Shown here piece after piece: positions 1 to 37,640 of a stretch of DNA of 64,000 bases; the stretch's first letter is position 1; each line of letters begins with the position of its first letter. Location: assembly GCF_055900595.2 (NCBI RefSeq), contig NZ_CM148325.1; one strand, 5' to 3'. The notes beneath the pieces were generated by a model. The model was not told the origin of the DNA. It searched no databases and was given only the letters and a program-made list of their open reading frames with translations. The translations under genes and the position numbers were made by a program.

Positions 1-1014
1 GATGACGACGCGGAGATGACCCACTCGGTGGCGGTAAACGTCTACCCGGCAACATCGCGGATGCCAAAGTTAACCATTGTGGTGGTGGATACCATTCCGG
101 TGGAGCTAAAAAGTTCCTATATGGTCTGGAGCTGGTTTATCTATGTGCTTTCAGCCAATCTGCTGTTAGTGATCCCGCTGCTGTGGGTAGCCGCCTGGTG
201 GAGTTTACGTCCCATCGAGGCCCTGGCAAAAGAAGTCCGCGAACTGGAAGAGCATAACCGCGAATTGCTCAATCCTGCCACAACACGAGAACTGACCAGT
301 CTGGTACGAAACCTGAACCGACTGTTAAAAAGTGAACGCGAACGTTACGACAAATACCGCACTACGCTCACCGACCTGACCCATAGTCTGAAAACGCCAC
401 TGGCGGTGCTGCAAAGTACGCTGCGTTCTCTGCGTAGTGAGAAGATGAGCGTCAGTGATGCAGAGCCGGTGATGCTGGAGCAAATCAGCCGCATTTCACA
501 GCAAATTGGCTACTACCTGCATCGTGCCAGTATGCGCGGAGGGACATTGCTTAGCCGCGAACTGCATCCGGTCGCCCCTCTGTTGGACAATCTCACCTCG
601 GCGCTGAACAAAGTGTATCAACGCAAAGGGGTCAATATCTCTCTCGATATTTCACCAGAGATCAGCTTTGTTGGTGAGCAGAACGATTTTGTCGAGGTGA
701 TGGGCAACGTGCTGGATAACGCCTGTAAATATTGCCTCGAGTTTGTCGAAATTTCTGCAAGGCAAACCGACGAGCATCTCTATATTGTGGTCGAGGATGA
801 TGGCCCCGGTATTCCATTAAGCAAGCGAGAGGTCATTTTCGACCGTGGTCAACGGGTTGATACTTTACGCCCTGGGCAAGGTGTAGGGCTGGCGGTAGCC
901 CGCGAAATCACCGAGCAGTATGAGGGTAAAATCGTCGCCGGAGAGAGCATGCTGGGCGGTGCGCGGATGGAGGTGATTTTTGGTCGCCAGCATTCTGCGC
1001 CGAAAGATGAATAA
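1..1014 (+). CDS. phoQ: Sensor histidine kinase PhoQ, C-terminal ~338 aa; 5' end lies outside the window
   Basis: Frame-1 translation from base 1 contains the membrane-proximal region, HAMP, phospho-acceptor and HATPase domains (...[17 protein letters not shown]...DDGPGIP...[12 protein letters not shown]...) and ends at stop 1012-1014; recognised as PhoQ from memory. Confidence 0.95.
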
Positions 1015-2258: not shown

Positions 2259-3485
2259 CTACTTCCGTTGCGCCGTTAACTCGGCAATACGGACGATCAC
2301 CTGCACCGCTTTTTCCATACCTTCCAGAGTCACAAATTCATGCTTACCATGGTAGTTGTAACCGCCAGTGAACAGGTTCGGGCACGGTAATCCCATAAAC
2401 GACAACTGCGCGCCGTCGGTACCGCCGCGGATCGGTTTCAGTTCCGGCTCAATATCGCAGTCACGCATCGCCTGCTGGGCGATATCGAGAATATGCGGAT
2501 GCTCAACCACTTTCTCGCGCATATTGTAGTAACTGTCTTCAATCACCAGTTCAATGTAGCAATCAGGATGTAACCCTTTGCCCACTTTTTTGGCGATCTC
2601 CATCATTTTACGTTTACGCGCTTCAAACTGTTTACGGTCGAAATCACGGATGATGTAGTGCATATCGGCCCGTTCAACGGTGCCTTTCATGCTCGCCAGG
2701 TGATAGAAACCTTCATAGCCTTCTGTCATTTCCGGGCTTTCATCCGCCGGAACTTCCGCATGAATACGTGCCGCCAGCGACAGCGCATTTACCATCACTC
2801 CTTTCGCCGTGCCCGGGTGAACATTGTTACCGACAATTTTGATATTGACCGACGCGGCGTTGAAGTTTTCAAACTCCAGTTCGCCGACGCCACCACCATC
2901 AACGGTGTAAGCCCAGCGGGCATCGAAGGCGTCAACATCAAAATGTTTCGCCCCTTTGCCCACTTCTTCATCCGGGGTAAAGGCGACGCGAATATCACCA
3001 TGCGGAATGTTTTTTTGTTGTAATACCGCCAGCGCGGTCATGATTTCTGCAACACCTGCTTTATCATCGGCACCTAACAAGGTTTTACCATCGGTGGTAA
3101 TCAGCGTCTGACCCAGTAGCTGATGCAGCACCGGGAACATAACCGGTGATAAAACTTCATCGCCGATACCCAGCGCAATATCGCCACCACGATAGTTTTC
3201 AACAATTTGCGGATTCACATTTTTGCCGCTGCAATCCGGTGAGGTATCCACATGAGAAATAAAGCCAATCGCCGGGATATCGCCAGGGACGTTAGCCGGT
3301 AACGTCGCCATCAAAGTGCCCTTCTCACTTAAGGTCACATTGATAAGCCCCATCTCTTCGAGCTGCTCTTTCAGCAGATGCAATAACTTCCATTGGCCTT
3401 CCGTGCTGGGAACCTGTCTCACCCCTGCCTTTGATTGGGTATCCAGAGACACGTAGTTCAAAAATCGCTCAAGTAGTTTATCCAT
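2259..3485 (-). CDS. pepT: Peptidase T (tripeptide aminopeptidase)
   Basis: ORF 2259..3527; internal ATG at 3485 preceded by gagggtgac RBS gives [18 protein letters not shown]... 408 aa. Confidence 0.95.
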
Positions 3486-26575: not shown

Positions 26576-28765
26576 ATGCTTTCAACACAATTTAACAGGG
26601 ATAATCAACATCAAACCACCTCCAAACCGTCACTGCTTGCCGCCTGCATAGCACTGGCACTCTTACCTTCCGCCGCTTTTGCTGCACCAGCCACTGAAGA
26701 AACGGTGATTGTTGAGGGTTCCGCCACTACTCCAGTTGATGACGAAAATGATTACAGCGTAACGTCTACCTCTGCGGGTACCAAAATGCAGATGACTCAA
26801 CGTGATATTCCTCAGTCGGTCACTATTGTTAGTCAGCAGCGGATGGAAGATCAGCAGTTACAAACGCTGGGCGAAGTGATGGAAAACACGCTGGGGATCA
26901 GCAAAAGTCAGGCGGATTCCGATCGTGCTCTTTATTATTCCCGCGGATTCCAGATCGATAACTATATGGTTGATGGTATCCCCACCTATTTTGAATCGCG
27001 CTGGAATCTGGGCGACGCACTTTCTGATATGGCACTGTTTGAACGCGTAGAAGTAGTGCGTGGCGCGACAGGACTCATGACCGGTACGGGTAATCCATCT
27101 GCGGCAATTAATATGGTTCGAAAACACGCGACCAGTCGTGAATTTAAAGGCGATGTCTCGGCAGAATACGGTAGCTGGAACAAAGAACGGTATGTGGCGG
27201 ATTTACAAAGTCCACTCACCGAAGATGGTAAAATCCGCGCGCGAATTGTCGGCGGCTACCAGAATAACGACTCATGGCTGGACCGCTACAACAGTGAAAA
27301 GACCTTCTTCTCCGGCATTGTTGATGCTGATTTAGGCGATCTTACGACGCTTTCAGCCGGTTACGAATATCAGCGCATTGATGTTAATAGCCCAACGTGG
27401 GGCGGTTTACCGCGCTGGAATACTGATGGCAGCAGCAACAGTTACGATCGCGCACGCAGTACCGCACCTGACTGGGCGTACAACGATAAAGAGATCAACA
27501 AGGTCTTTATGACCCTGAAGCAGCGGTTTGCTGATACCTGGCAAGCGACACTGAATGCCACCCACTCCGAAGTCGAATTTGACAGCAAAATGATGTATGT
27601 CGATGCCTATGTAAACAAAGCGGATGGTATGCTGGTTGGGCCATACAGTAATTATGGACCTGGCTTTGATTATGTCGGCGGCACCGGTTGGAACAGCGGC
27701 AAACGTAAAGTTGATGCGCTGGATTTGTTCGCTGACGGTAGTTATGAATTGTTTGGTCGTCAGCACAATCTCATGTTTGGTGGCAGTTACAGCAAACAAA
27801 ACAATCGTTACTTCAGTTCATGGGCCAACATCTTCCCGGATGAAATTGGCAGTTTCTACAACTTTAATGGCAATTTCCCACAAACCGACTGGTCACCACA
27901 GAATCTGGCGCAGGACGATACCACACATATGAAATCGTTATATGCTGCCACTCGTGTCACCCTTGCCGATCCGCTGCATCTGATCCTCGGCGCACGTTAT
28001 ACCAACTGGCGGGTTGATACGCTGACTTATAGCATGGAGAAAAACCACACCACGCCTTATGCTGGACTGGTGTTTGACATCAATGATAACTGGTCGACCT
28101 ACGCCAGCTATACCTCTATTTTCCAGCCGCAAAATGACCGTGACAGTTCAGGCAAATATCTGGCTCCAATCACCGGTAACAACTACGAGCTGGGTCTGAA
28201 ATCGGACTGGATGAATAGCCGTCTGACCACCACGTTAGCCATCTTCCGTATTGAGCAGGATAATGTCGCTCAGTCCACCGGTACACCTATCCCCGGCAGC
28301 AACGGCGAAACCGCCTATAAAGCGGTGGATGGGACAGTCAGTAAAGGTGTGGAATTTGAACTCAACGGCGCAATTACCGACAACTGGCAGCTGACGTTTG
28401 GCGCAACGCGCTATATTGCAGAAGATAACGAAGGAAACGCCGTTAATCCTAATCTGCCACGCACCACGGTTAAAATGTTCACCAGCTATCGGTTGCCTGT
28501 CATGGCAGAGTTGACGGTCGGCGGTGGTGTTAACTGGCAAAATCGCGTGTATACCGACACCGTGACACCGTATGGCACCTTCCGCGCCGAGCAAGGTAGC
28601 TACGCGCTGGTGGATCTCTTCACCCGCTACCAGGTGACGAAAAACTTCTCGTTACAGGGGAACGTCAATAACCTGTTCGACAAAACCTACGATACGAACG
28701 TGGAAGGTTCTATCGTCTACGGCGCACCGCGTAATTTCAGCATTACCGGCACGTATCAATTCTGA
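26576..28765 (+). CDS. fhuE: TonB-dependent outer-membrane receptor for coprogen/ferrioxamine B/rhodotorulic acid
   Basis: 729 aa; signal peptide, TonB box, terminal ...NFSITGTYQF aromatic C-terminus. Confidence 0.96.
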   Translation: MLSTQFNRDNQHQTTSKPSLLAACIALALLPSAAFAAPATEETVIVEGSATTPVDDENDYSVTSTSAGTKMQMTQRDIPQSVTIVSQQRMEDQQLQTLGEVMENTLGISKSQADSDRALYYSRGFQIDNYMVDGIPTYFESRWNLGDALSDMALFERVEVVRGATGLMTGTGNPSAAINMVRKHATSREFKGDVSAEYGSWNKERYVADLQSPLTEDGKIRARIVGGYQNNDSWLDRYNSEKTFFSGIVDADLGDLTTLSAGYEYQRIDVNSPTWGGLPRWNTDGSSNSYDRARSTAPDWAYNDKEINKVFMTLKQRFADTWQATLNATHSEVEFDSKMMYVDAYVNKADGMLVGPYSNYGPGFDYVGGTGWNSGKRKVDALDLFADGSYELFGRQHNLMFGGSYSKQNNRYFSSWANIFPDEIGSFYNFNGNFPQTDWSPQNLAQDDTTHMKSLYAATRVTLADPLHLILGARYTNWRVDTLTYSMEKNHTTPYAGLVFDINDNWSTYASYTSIFQPQNDRDSSGKYLAPITGNNYELGLKSDWMNSRLTTTLAIFRIEQDNVAQSTGTPIPGSNGETAYKAVDGTVSKGVEFELNGAITDNWQLTFGATRYIAEDNEGNAVNPNLPRTTVKMFTSYRLPVMAELTVGGGVNWQNRVYTDTVTPYGTFRAEQGSYALVDLFTRYQVTKNFSLQGNVNNLFDKTYDTNVEGSIVYGAPRNFSITGTYQF

Positions 28766-28785
28766 ATAACACCTGTAATAAATAT

Positions 28786-28809
28786 CCTCCGGCATAGCCG
28801 GAGGTTTTT
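28786..28809 (+). terminator. IS200 end hairpin with T-tract (cctccggc-ata-gccggagg-ttttt)
   Basis: Perfect 8-bp stem plus TTTTT inside the IS right end; would terminate fhuE read-through; copy B equivalent at 35617-35640. Confidence 0.5.
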
Positions 28810-28885
28810 CAAATGCGCCTGTAAGGCTCTGTTACCAGCCGCGCCCTAACAGGCGCATACGATCTGACATTTGCATTCAACTTCG

Positions 28886-29344
28886 TTACTTACGGCCCGT
28901 AAACGGGCTGCCCGGATATGGAATCGATAACTGCTCCCCCATTTTATCCTCTTCAAGCTGGTGCTTTATGTAGTCCTGTATCTTCGCCGTGTTCTTACCC
29001 ACCGTATCGACATAGTACCCTCGGCACCAGAACTCCCTGTTTCTGTATTTGAATTTCAAATCCCCAAACTGCTCGTAAAGCATCAGACTGCTTTTCCCTT
29101 TCAGATATCCCATAAAGCCGGATACGCTCATTTTGGGTGGGATTTCCACAAGCATATGGATATGATCTGCGCAGCACTCTGCTTCCAGAATCCGTACGCT
29201 TTTCCACTCACACAGCTTTCTCAAAATACTGCCTATCGCCCTACGCTTCTCTCCGTAAAACGCCAGTCTTCGGTATTTCGGCGCAAAAACTATGTGATAT
29301 TTACAGTTCCAGCGGGTGTGCGCTAAGCTCTTTTCGTCCCCCAT
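28886..29344 (-). CDS. tnpA: IS200 transposase TnpA (Y1 HUH family)
   Basis: ORF 28886..29395; ATG at 29344 gives MGDEKSLAHTRWNCKYHIVFAPKYRR...HIHMLV (HUH)...CRGYYVDTVG (catalytic Tyr), ~152 aa. Confidence 0.92.
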   Translation of the reverse strand: MGDEKSLAHTRWNCKYHIVFAPKYRRLAFYGEKRRAIGSILRKLCEWKSVRILEAECCADHIHMLVEIPPKMSVSGFMGYLKGKSSLMLYEQFGDLKFKYRNREFWCRGYYVDTVGKNTAKIQDYIKHQLEEDKMGEQLSIPYPGSPFTGRK

Positions 29345-29420
29345 TGGGACCCCCTTTTGATTTCTTGTTTGACACTTGCAGTTGCCAGACCGCAAGGTGT
29401 TTTAACAAATCAAAAGGGGT
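29345..29420 (-). promoter_or_regulatory. IS200 tnpA 5' leader stem-loop that occludes the ribosome-binding site
   Basis: In tnpA sense, ccccuuuugauu pairs with aaucaaaagggg, which covers the SD immediately upstream of the ATG; described for Salmonella IS200. Confidence 0.55.
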
Positions 29421-29456
29421 TTTAATAACTGGCTCAAAGCTGAAAGCTTTCCGGAA

Positions 29457-29480
29457 CCCCCAGCCTAGCTGGGGGTTTTC
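29457..29480. terminator. IS200 left-end perfect hairpin (ccccc-agcctagct-ggggg)
   Basis: Perfect palindrome followed by tttt on the plus strand; IS200 ends carry hairpins that block impinging transcription. Confidence 0.5.
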
Positions 29481-29489
29481 TGTGCACAA

Positions 29490-29512
29490 AAAAGGCAGCC
29501 ATCTGGCTGCCT
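29490..29512 (-). terminator. ptsG rho-independent terminator
   Basis: In ptsG sense, ggcagccagatggctgcc followed by a T-run, then the IS200 end. Confidence 0.7.
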
Positions 29513-29535
29513 TAGTCTCCCCAACGTCTTACGGA

Positions 29536-30969
29536 TTAGTGGTTACGGATGTACTCATCCATCTCGGTTTTCAGGTTATCGGATTTAGTACCGAAAATCG
29601 CCTGAACACCAGAACCAGCAACCACTACGCCCGCTGCGCCCAGTTTCTTCAGGCCAGCCTGATCCACTTTAGACACATCAGCAACGCTGACGCGCAGACG
29701 GGTAATACATGCGTCGAGGTTAGTGATGTTTTCTTTACCACCAAACGCAGCAACCAGAGCCGGTGCCATTTCGCTGGTACCTGTCGCTTTTGCATCATCA
29801 GTCGCGTCTTCACGACCCGGCGTTTTCAGATCCAGTGCTTTAATCAGCACGCGGAAGATGGTGTAGTAAACAATTGCATAACCGATACCGACGATCGGGA
29901 ACAGCCACAGTTTGCTGCTGTTACCAGACAGAACGATGAAGTCGATCAGACCGTGCGAGAACGACGTACCGTCACGCATCCCCAGAAGAATACAGATTGG
30001 GAATGCCAGGCCTGCCAGAATCGCGTGGATGATGTACAGGATAGGCGCAACGAACATGAAGGAGAACTCGATCGGCTCGGTGATACCGGTCAGGAACGAG
30101 GTCAGCGCCGCGGAGATCATGATACCGCCCACTTTCGCGCGGTTTTCCGGTTTAGCAGAGTGCCAGATAGCAATTGCGGCAGCTGGCAGACCGTACATTT
30201 TGAACAGGAAGCCGCCAGACAGTTTACCCGCAGTCGGGTCACCCGCCATATAACGCGGAATGTCGCCGTGGAAAACCTGACCTGCAGCGTTGGTGTATTC
30301 ACCAATCTGCATCTGGAAAGGTACGTTCCAGATGTGGTGCAGACCAAACGGTACCAGGCAACGTTCGATGAAACCGTAAATGCCAAACGCAACTACCGGG
30401 TTCTGGTAAGCAGCCCACTGAGAGAAGGTCTGGATTGCAGAACCAATAGGCGGCCAAATGAAGGACAGCACAACGCCAGTAAATATGGCAGCCAGGCCTG
30501 AAATGATCGGCACAAAGCGTTTACCGGCAAAGAAGCCAAGATACTCAGGCAGCTTAATACGGTAGAAACGGTTAAACATGTACGCTGCGATCGCACCGGA
30601 GATGATCCCCCCGAGTACGCCAGTATCCGCCAGGTGTTTAGAGGCGATTTCTTCAGCAGGTAAATGCAGTACCAGTGGCGCAACCACGGCCATGGTTTTA
30701 ACCATGATGCCATAGGCAACAACTGCGGCCAGCGCGGATACGCCATCGTTATTGGTAAAGCCGAGGGCGACACCGATCGCAAAAATCAGTGGCATGTTTG
30801 CAAAGACGGAACCGCCTGCTTCTGCCATAACATGCGATACAACGGCGGGCAGCCAGCTGAAATTCGCGGAACCGACGCCCAGCAGAATACCTGCGATAGG
30901 CAGTACGGATACCGGCAGCATCAGCGATTTACCGACCTTTTGCAGGTTAGCAAATGCATTCTTAAACAT
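29536..30969 (-). CDS. ptsG: Glucose-specific PTS enzyme IICB
   Basis: 477 aa, [33 protein letters not shown]...; EIIB Cys motif in the C-terminal domain. Confidence 0.97.
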
Positions 30970-34728: not shown

Positions 34729-35538
34729 CTAATTCGGGCGCTCACAAAGTGGGGCTAAATATTCATATAACGTTGCTGACGAAAAGGAGACATCGCCACA
34801 GGCACGTACGGGCATCACTGGCATTAACGCATTACAAATAACCATCTCATCTGCCTGCAACGCCTCTTCCAGAGTGGCTTGCACTTCGACAAGCTGATAA
34901 GAGGATTGTGCCAGTAAACGGATACAGAATTGTCGCATAATGCCGTTAACACCTGCCTGCTCTAGTCGCGGCGTATAAACTACATTGCCCTTCCGCCAGA
35001 ACAAATTAGCCGCACAGCATTCCGTAACCCACCCTTCGCTGTCAAGGACCAGCGCCTCATCAGCGTTTGTCTGCTCAAGATGAGAGCGGATCAATACTTG
35101 TTCAAGCCGATTAAGATGTTTAATACCTGCAAGATGAGGATTGCGCCCCAGCCGCACCGGGCTTAGCGCCAACATCATCCCCTCGTTACGCAAACGATCG
35201 TAATGTGCAGGATAAGCCGTAACGGAGAGAATCCGCGTTGCCGGTCCGCTGTTCAATGTGCTGTACCCTCGCCCGCCACTACCGCGACTGATCACGACCT
35301 TCAGCACACCATTCTGCTGTTCTGCTGCCAGCGTTTTCATCTCTTGTTCAAGCTGAGGCCAGAAGTCACAGGAAATCATCAACCGCTGACAAGCATCCTG
35401 TAGTCGCTGGATATGTGCCGATAACAAACTGACTTTACCGTCGATAACTCTGGCGGTGGTAAAACAACCATCACCAAACTGCGTTGCTCGATCGCTTACT
35501 GCCAGCGATTCCTGCTTATGACCGTTAATTAAGAACAT
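34729..35538 (-). CDS. pabC: Aminodeoxychorismate lyase
   Basis: 269 aa, [31 protein letters not shown]...; PLP fold-type IV. Confidence 0.95.
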
Positions 35539-35606: not shown

Positions 35607-36320
35607 TAATAAATATCCTCCGGCATAGCCGGAGGTTTTTCAAATGCGCCTGTAAGGCTCTGTTACCAGCCGCGCCCTAACAGGCGCATACGATCTGACA
35701 TTTGCATTCAACTTCGTTACTTACGGCCCGTAAACGGGCTGCCCGGATATGGAATCGATAACTGCTCCCCCATTTTATCCTCTTCAAGCTGGTGCTTTAT
35801 GTAGTCCTGTATCTTCGCCGTGTTCTTACCCACCGTATCGACATAGTACCCTCGGCACCAGAACTCCCTGTTTCTGTATTTGAATTTCAAATCCCCAAAC
35901 TGCTCGTAAAGCATCAGACTGCTTTTCCCTTTCAGATATCCCATAAAGCCGGATACGCTCATTTTGGGTGGGATTTCCACAAGCATATGGATATGATCTG
36001 CGCAGCACTCTGCTTCCAGAATCCGTACGCTTTTCCACTCACACAGCTTTCTCAAAATACTGCCTATCGCCCTACGCTTCTCTCCGTAAAACGCCAGTCT
36101 TCGGTATTTCGGCGCAAAAACTATGTGATATTTACAGTTCCAGCGGGTGTGCGCTAAGCTCTTTTCGTCCCCCATTGGGACCCCCTTTTGATTTCTTGTT
36201 TGACACTTGCAGTTGCCAGACCGCAAGGTGTTTTAACAAATCAAAAGGGGTTTTAATAACTGGCTCAAAGCTGAAAGCTTTCCGGAACCCCCAGCCTAGC
36301 TGGGGGTTTTCTGTGCACAA
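35607..36320 (-). mobile_element. IS200-family insertion sequence, copy B (714 bp), same orientation as copy A
   Basis: Matches 28776-29489; flanks diverge at 35606/28775 and 36321/29490. Confidence 0.9.
35717..36175 (-). CDS. tnpA: IS200 transposase TnpA (Y1 HUH family), copy B
   Basis: Protein identical to copy A; same RBS-occluding stem-loop at 36176-36251. Confidence 0.92.
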   Translation of the reverse strand: MGDEKSLAHTRWNCKYHIVFAPKYRRLAFYGEKRRAIGSILRKLCEWKSVRILEAECCADHIHMLVEIPPKMSVSGFMGYLKGKSSLMLYEQFGDLKFKYRNREFWCRGYYVDTVGKNTAKIQDYIKHQLEEDKMGEQLSIPYPGSPFTGRK

Positions 36321-36347
36321 GAAAAAAGGCCCGCAAGCGGACCTTTT
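36321..36347 (-). terminator. fabF rho-independent terminator
   Basis: In fabF sense, ggtccgc-ttgc-gggcc followed by ttttttc, then IS200 copy B. Confidence 0.65.

Positions 36348-36368: not shown

Positions 36369-37640
<1,272 letters not shown>

Follow-up and report, generated by a model that had tools for sequence, protein, structure and literature searches.

A copy of IS200 between fhuE and ptsG places its right-end hairpin as a plausible replacement terminator for fhuE

Results

An IS200 copy separates fhuE from the hairpin it shares with ptsG

The window analyzed here, a stretch of 64,000 nucleotides from contig NZ_CM148325.1 (RefSeq assembly GCF_055900595.2), carries the convergent genes fhuE and ptsG with a copy of IS200 (copy A) between them. 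The names fhuE, tnpA (IS200/IS605 family) and ptsG are those used by RefSeq in eight genomes with 100%-identical DNA. The features of the locus are listed below, where RE and LE denote the right and left ends of the element.

26576-28765, plus strand: fhuE coding sequence, 729 aa, intact (open reading frame list; RefSeq on identical DNA; 3' end aligned with K-12 fhuE)
28766-28776, plus strand: remnant of the native fhuE 3' UTR, ataacacctgt, 11 nt (alignment with K-12 and with the empty-site strain 2013C-4282)
28777-29487, minus strand: IS200 copy A, 711 bp, RE towards fhuE and LE towards ptsG (empty-site comparison)
28786-28804, plus strand: RE subterminal hairpin CCTCCGGC-ata-GCCGGAGG, followed by T5 at 28805-28809 (terminator scan, folds)
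28813-28858, no strand assigned: a further inverted repeat near the RE, ATGCGCCTGT ... ACAGGCGCAT, within the IS and past the RE hairpin for transcription from fhuE (folds)
28886-29344, minus strand: tnpA, 152-aa Y1 HUH transposase (RefSeq; Pfam Y1_Tnp)
29354-29477, minus strand: LE RNA region, tnpA 5' UTR / art200, Rfam STnc490 (Rfam RF01405)
29455-29477, within the LE RNA region: LE hairpin (about -18 kcal/mol), with TTTTCTGTG after it on the plus strand
29488-29511, minus strand: ancestral shared terminator, composed of a hairpin at 29494-29511 and a 6-nt run at 29488-29493 (alignments, scan)
29536-30969, minus strand: ptsG coding sequence, 477 aa (open reading frame list, RefSeq, K-12 alignment)

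The fhuE stop codon, placed at 28763-28765 in an earlier sequence-only reading of the window, is indeed the TGA that closes the 729-aa frame. In K-12 MG1655 and in strain 2013C-4282, where the site is empty, the alignment gives a stop-to-stop spacer of 59 bp, which reads TGA-ataacacctgt-aaaaaa-GGCAGCCatctGGCTGCC-ttagtctccccaacgtcttacggat-TTA in both strains, the sequence after GGCAGCCatctGGCTGCC beginning ttagtctcc. Compared with this empty site, the window holds a clean 711-bp insert between cctgt and aaaaaa (28777-29487), and comparison with the two strains shows that the target was not duplicated; since the IS and the far flank both begin with aa, the boundary can be placed only to within 0-2 nt. 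The sequence-only reading had put the IS end 10 bp past the fhuE stop: the adjacency stands, whereas the distance becomes 11 nt by the empty-site comparison.

The same reading stated that fhuE and ptsG of K-12 converge on a single hairpin and proposed that the IS now parts fhuE from it. Both points agree with the alignments. The 59-bp K-12 spacer contains one hairpin and no separate fhuE terminator, and copy A sits between the fhuE stop and this hairpin (GGCAGCCATCTGGCTGCC, 29494-29511), which was correctly located on the far side of the element. A separate K-12 fhuE terminator retained in the window was ruled out, as the A6 run follows the stop codon after just 11 nt.

Of 5426 complete E. coli genomes, 9 carry the insertion between fhuE and ptsG. 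In one of these nine, E. coli KGu016 (our locus L124, NZ_CP091704.1 3043831-3045731), the insertion is the same in position, orientation and RE hairpin, and 12 of 1501 positions differ from the window: four in fhuE, two in the IS, one in the ancestral hairpin's loop and five in ptsG. Either this is an old event shared by the two, or the terminator was hit twice independently.

Copy A is an ordinary IS200 whose right end faces fhuE

The tnpA product matched Pfam PF01797 (Y1_Tnp) at 126.5 bits (cut-off 23, E = 7.9e-37) over profile positions 2-121 of 121, and the region 29354-29477 matched Rfam RF01405 over its full length of 1-124 (146.4 bits, gathering score 56, E = 5e-31). Both tnpA and STnc490 lie on the minus strand, and therefore so does the element, with its RE facing fhuE and tnpA co-oriented with ptsG. 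Copy A resembles IS200 (IS200 group of the IS200/IS605 family, to which IS1541 of Yersinia is a close relative) in its size of ~710 bp, its single Y1 HUH transposase, its lack of terminal inverted repeats and of a target duplication, its subterminal hairpins at both ends and its STnc490 match. We found nothing essential that differs, and the location between fhuE and ptsG is its one rare feature. A second, identical copy lies in the window (copy B), and the first 300 nt of copy A are an exact repeat of it at 35607.

The two ends of the element are unrelated in sequence, and each carries a subterminal hairpin. The structure next to fhuE is that of the RE, a point absent from the sequence-only reading: it is the TnpA-binding subterminal palindrome, read backwards by transcription from fhuE. 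Binding of TnpA is the primary role of the right subterminal palindrome, as established for the family (PMC3333891, PMC8266576). No promoter-like site was found by a scan of 28300-29900, and on this basis we rejected outward transcription from a promoter of the element.

The right-end hairpin has the shape of an intrinsic terminator on the fhuE strand

An IS-borne hairpin at 28786-28809 had been proposed as the structure at which fhuE transcripts now end, and CCTCCGGCATAGCCGGAGG followed by TTTTT is present there. Each IS200 copy carries this string once, at the same end, and the window has no other occurrence of it; 0 are expected from shuffled sequences. Its presence at just these two IS ends rules out a chance origin. 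Beginning 20 nt past the stop codon, RNA of the fhuE strand reads CCUCCGGC-AUA-GCCGGAGG and then UUUUUCAAAU, which forms a stem of eight pairs, seven of them G-C, with a loop of 3 nt. The hairpin has a dG of -15.5 kcal/mol (z = -4.4 compared with shuffles) and persists in both the minimum-energy and the centroid folds of a 191-nt context. Its stem lies downstream of the fhuE end and co-directional with it, clear of the terminating ribosome, at a spacing similar to that in K-12.

We defined the stem-loop of an intrinsic terminator as GC-rich, with a stem of 5-14 bp and a loop of 3-8 nt. The RE structure on the fhuE strand falls within these bounds and is followed by a U-tract directly 3' of the stem. 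The terminator scan called this hairpin on both strands, with ATATTTATT as the sequence after it in the tnpA sense. On the fhuE strand its tail score is 4.62, compared with 3.26 for the ancestral hairpin in the fhuE sense, or 1.92 if A-U pairs are counted in the ancestral stem. Ranked against the 95 natural host terminators gathered in this analysis, the RE hairpin lies inside the natural range, at the 21st percentile for stability (dG) and at the 83rd for tail score, and a stem of 8 bp and a loop of 3 nt are modest by the standard of natural terminators. Judged by its sequence, the RE hairpin with its T5 run is thus of canonical intrinsic-terminator shape on the fhuE strand, and a replacement of the shared hairpin by this structure as the fhuE terminator is a plausible, and the most economical, reading.

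An alternative, which we consider unlikely, is that the RE hairpin is leaky in the fhuE orientation. A large share of fhuE transcripts would then run on antisense across tnpA and end at the LE hairpin (the art200 terminator, GGGGGUUUUCUGUG on the plus strand), at the ancestral one, or through the action of Rho on untranslated RNA. The short stem and loop of the RE hairpin and its low rank in stability are compatible with such leakage, and the LE hairpin is both more stable (~-18 kcal/mol) and an experimentally documented strong terminator. Passages in PMC4513863 and PMC5435999 describe the LE hairpin (nt 12-34 of IS200) as a bidirectional Rho-independent terminator, citing Beuzon et al. 1999, and state that it stops ~85% of impinging transcripts. 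The published termination experiments that we found concern this LE hairpin, and our literature search found none on the IS200 RE in either direction. However, transcription from fhuE encounters the RE hairpin first, the shape of this hairpin is canonical, and its U-tract is the better of the two (4.62 as against 3.48 for the LE on the plus strand).

An RNA of another bacterium bears on the opposite strand. StyR-24, a cDNA of 102 nt from S. Typhi, starts 4 nt after the tnpA open reading frame in the sense orientation (PMC2943607). By arithmetic its 3' end would be expected a few nt past the RE hairpin, which would suggest RNA 3' ends at this hairpin in the other direction.

In K-12, the fhuE mRNA 3' end maps to the shared hairpin

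The ptsG hairpin and its T6 run are unchanged in the window. The left end of the IS adjoins the run at 29488-29493, which reads T6 in the ptsG sense and A6 in the fhuE sense. The consensus scan called the ancestral hairpin on the minus (ptsG) strand only, and in the ptsG sense its tail score is 5.24. In the fhuE sense its tail is merely UUAGUCUC (UUAGU), such that U-rich tracts do not flank this hairpin on both sides.

The Term-seq data of K-12 (Adams et al. 2021, PMC7815308 supplementary file 1) list a strong 3' end at 1159322(-), annotated as 'primary fhuE, antisense ptsG', with a score of 27505. From the coordinates of the coding sequences, this end maps to ...GGCUGCCUUAGU-3' (also given as ...GGCAGCCAUCUGGCUGCCUUAGU-3'), which is 5 nt past the shared hairpin, yields a 3' UTR of 40 nt and corresponds to ~29516 in the window. 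Judging from its row position in the file, this end probably stems from the M63-glucose data set, which would make sense for an iron-regulated gene. The same curated list holds no 'primary' 3' end for ptsG and so documents use of the hairpin on the fhuE side only, although in the ptsG sense this hairpin has by far the better appearance. Neither gene is mentioned in the supplements to the TERMITe paper (PMC12207403).

The K-12 end at the shared hairpin could reflect exonuclease trimming in place of termination, and this caveat would apply to the window as well. RNA polymerase might stop elsewhere and 3'-to-5' exonucleases trim the transcript back to the RE hairpin, which would then set the fhuE 3' end post-transcriptionally, as an mRNA-stabilizing end and not as a terminator. 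The K-12 end, 5 nt past a hairpin with a poor U-tract, is as compatible with trimming, or with collision-assisted termination, as it is with simple intrinsic termination. The RE hairpin, unlike the ancestral one, has five consecutive U immediately past its stem, so intrinsic termination at this structure requires no extra assumptions, and we regard trimming as the source of the fhuE end in the window as very unlikely.

Conservation of the two IS ends

The RE motif GAAAAACCTCCGGCTATGCCGGAGGATATTTATT is shared by E. coli, IS1541 of Y. pestis and Edwardsiella, and the right end of copy A is identical or nearly so to the Y. pestis and Edwardsiella copies. In a Vibrio copy the stem is maintained by a compensatory change (CCACCGG...CCGGTGG) and the A5 run is kept. 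The inverted repeat at 28813-28858 is likewise conserved in the Y. pestis, Edwardsiella and Vibrio copies. Mailhella-type relatives (locus L041, ~3227-3330; locus L045, ~201-300, minus strand) also keep the RE hairpin, as CCACCGGCTATGCCGGTGG, but their A5 run is replaced by GAGGAA or GGGGAA and the tail by GGCCCC. As these copies have no T5, we rejected a group-wide antisense T5 run; the T-run that is read from outside is therefore lineage-specific, rather than universal and clearly selected.

At the other end, very distant phyla share exactly the same 24-nt LE hairpin, AACCCCCAGCTAGGCTGGGGGTTC, in loci L004-L065 from metagenome-assembled genomes (MAGs) of Oxalobacter, Peptococcaceae, Bacillota, Saccharibacteria, Elusimicrobiaceae and Mailhella. 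The 10-11 nt IS tip that precedes it varies by lineage (GTGCACAGAA, GTGCCCAGAA, GTATAGAGAA, GTGAAACGAA and GGTTAAAAGAA). Many of the copies in these MAGs lie at contig ends, which indicates that IS copies break assemblies.

IS200-group elements usually lie directly behind host hairpins with T-runs

On the ptsG strand, the copy A junction reads GGCAGCCagatGGCTGCC-TTTTTT / GTGCACAGAA (here and below, a slash marks the junction), with the left end of the IS abutting the T-run. We surveyed the flanks of related elements by searching for the 24-nt LE hairpin in a single genome of each species, which yielded more than 120 loci (L004-L123) from Yersinia, Vibrio, Edwardsiella, Brenneria, Pluralibacter, Oxalobacter, Mailhella/Desulfovibrio, Bacillota, Peptococcaceae and other MAGs. 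A hairpin with a perfect stem and a T-run, required to end 12-21 nt before the LE hairpin, was present at 95 of 120 unique flanks of real junctions, compared with 128 of 5000 random 60-mers (2.6%). A hairpin was located just upstream of TTTNTT at 74% of real junctions. For all TTTNTT sites of these loci the figure was 6.7%, and for the sites that fall outside long open frames it was 11%, which rules out a plain preference for T-runs or an avoidance of genes as the cause of the association with terminators. The consensus of the host flank is a GC-rich stem arm followed by TTTnTT directly at the junction, and in many taxa the left end of IS200-group elements sits 3' of a terminator, in the orientation of the terminated gene. 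The insertion point of copy A is set by the ptsG terminator, a type of site that is usual for IS200-group elements; the association of their insertions with terminators has, at least in part, already been described.

The geometry seen at fhuE recurs among related insertions. By crude open reading frame calls, a convergent frame of at least 100 aa ended no more than 120 nt from the RE in 17 of 46 full-length related insertions, and no more than 35 nt from it in 9 of these 46.

The second IS200 copy of the window has a similar location, next to fabF:

35608-36318, minus strand: IS200 copy B, in the same orientation as copy A (repeat match and direct reading)
36369-37610, on the strand of the copy B sense: fabF, 413 aa, with the left end of copy B directly 3' of its terminator

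The copy B junction (window 36319-36327) reads GGTCCGCTTGCGGGCCTTTTTTCTT / GTGCACAG, or GGTCCGCTTGCGGGCC-TTTTTTCTT / GTGCACAGAA from the terminator side. The empty site in K-12 reads CTTTTTTCTT / AGCTTTTA, again indicating a clean 711-bp insertion with no duplication. The Term-seq 3' end of fabF in K-12 lies 2 nt upstream of the insertion point (PMC7815308 supplementary file 1). Copy B is found between the fabF terminator and a 269-aa gene at 34729-35538, probably pabC. Its RE points at the upstream region of this gene, so read-through in the tnpA sense could enter 34729-35538.

Two further observations concern the arrangement of the copies. In tandem IS1541 copies of Y. pestis (locus L068, ~300-370; L069, 2660-3393; L071, 12604-13337; and L115), the LE of one copy abuts the RE hairpin of another, followed by ATATTTATT(T). 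This suggests either mimicry of the hairpin-plus-T-run target by the RE or dimers that resemble circle junctions. In the window, the sense strand of both IS copies is also the sense strand of ptsG and fabF. Insertion of IS608 and ISDra2 is known to be biased with respect to strand. Provided that the window and K-12 are syntenic here (right replichore, plus-strand genes), the IS sense strand would be the lagging-strand template, matching this bias.

Discussion

Taken as a whole, the explanation that we favor, and think likely, is that IS200 inserted behind the ptsG terminator and that most fhuE transcripts now end at the RE hairpin. The element would have entered the 59-bp fhuE/ptsG spacer with its LE directly 3' of the T6 of the ptsG terminator, leaving fhuE with 11 nt of its native 3' UTR before transcription reads into the right end of the IS. 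While the anatomy of the locus, the point of insertion and the 3' end in K-12 come directly from alignments and mapped data, termination at the RE hairpin itself is what we infer from its quality as a terminator at the level of sequence. Most fhuE transcripts are predicted to end at ~28810-28812, with a 3' UTR of ~45 nt that carries a hairpin of ~-15 kcal/mol, compared with 40 nt and ~-17 kcal/mol in K-12. Any read-through from fhuE would next meet the LE terminator and then the ancestral hairpin. With a 3' UTR and a hairpin so similar to the previous ones, and with two hairpins as backup, the swap is therefore probably like-for-like and near-neutral in its effect on fhuE. If anything, fhuE may now be better insulated from ptsG than it was before the insertion.

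Terminators borne by IS elements are known to act on neighboring transcripts. The RE hairpin resembles the LE terminator of IS200 itself, in that both are GC-rich hairpins of the IS that face transcription arriving from outside, the LE being the one for which termination is documented. A wider parallel is offered by 'mobile attenuators', IS-borne terminators that were exapted for neighboring cellular genes (Naville & Gautheret 2010, PMC2965389). In both cases a terminator carried by an IS acts on a host transcript purely through the place in which the element landed, an action that is predicted in the case of fhuE. However, mobile attenuators lie upstream of host genes and cause 5' attenuation, while here an IS end lies at the 3' end of a convergent gene, where it would take the place of that gene's terminator. 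An IS-borne terminator that serves a host gene is thus of a known kind, of which fhuE is a fresh instance.

The ancestral arrangement also has a counterpart. Ju and colleagues are said to have described, in Nat Microbiol in 2019, overlapping bidirectional terminators between convergent genes. The ptsG/fhuE spacer of K-12 is like these in having one hairpin with A6 and T-rich flanks and a mapped fhuE 3' end. It is unlike them in its asymmetry, with T6 for ptsG and UUAGU for fhuE, and in the window this hairpin no longer serves fhuE. With respect to target choice, the closest parallel is with group IIC introns, which Robart, Seo and Zimmerly reportedly found in 2007 to insert just past intrinsic terminators. 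Both these introns and IS200 home to a hairpin followed by a T-run, in the orientation of the terminated transcript, and thereby occupy a quiet, harmless site. The means differ, with group IIC introns employing retrohoming through RNA, and IS200 the transposition of single-stranded DNA by a Y1 transposase.

We also raise a broader proposal, possible although doubtful in our view, that IS200-group elements are terminator-seeking transposons of a self-compensating design, which carry their own replacement terminators. The target of TnpA would be a host hairpin with its T-run on single-stranded DNA, mimicked by the RE hairpin with ATATTTATT. Insertion would take place directly behind a terminator, in the orientation of the terminated gene, and the enterobacterial and Vibrio lineage would bring terminator-like hairpins at both of its ends. 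If this proposal is true, insertion into the terminator of convergent genes would leave a terminator to each gene and would protect the transposase on either side, and this could explain how a nearly immobile element persists at a high copy number with little harm.

The stakes for fhuE itself are small, as the gene is intact and most likely trades its 3' hairpin for one that is similar in strength and position. More generally, the case shows that insertion into a terminator common to two convergent genes does not have to cause disruption, as both flanks receive terminator-like structures from the element. We suggest that the more interesting lead is the terminator-directed choice of target, together with possible compensation by the IS ends, rather than the case of fhuE. 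Terminator-directed insertion in very different bacteria would help to explain the harmless persistence of these elements and would predict where new copies land.
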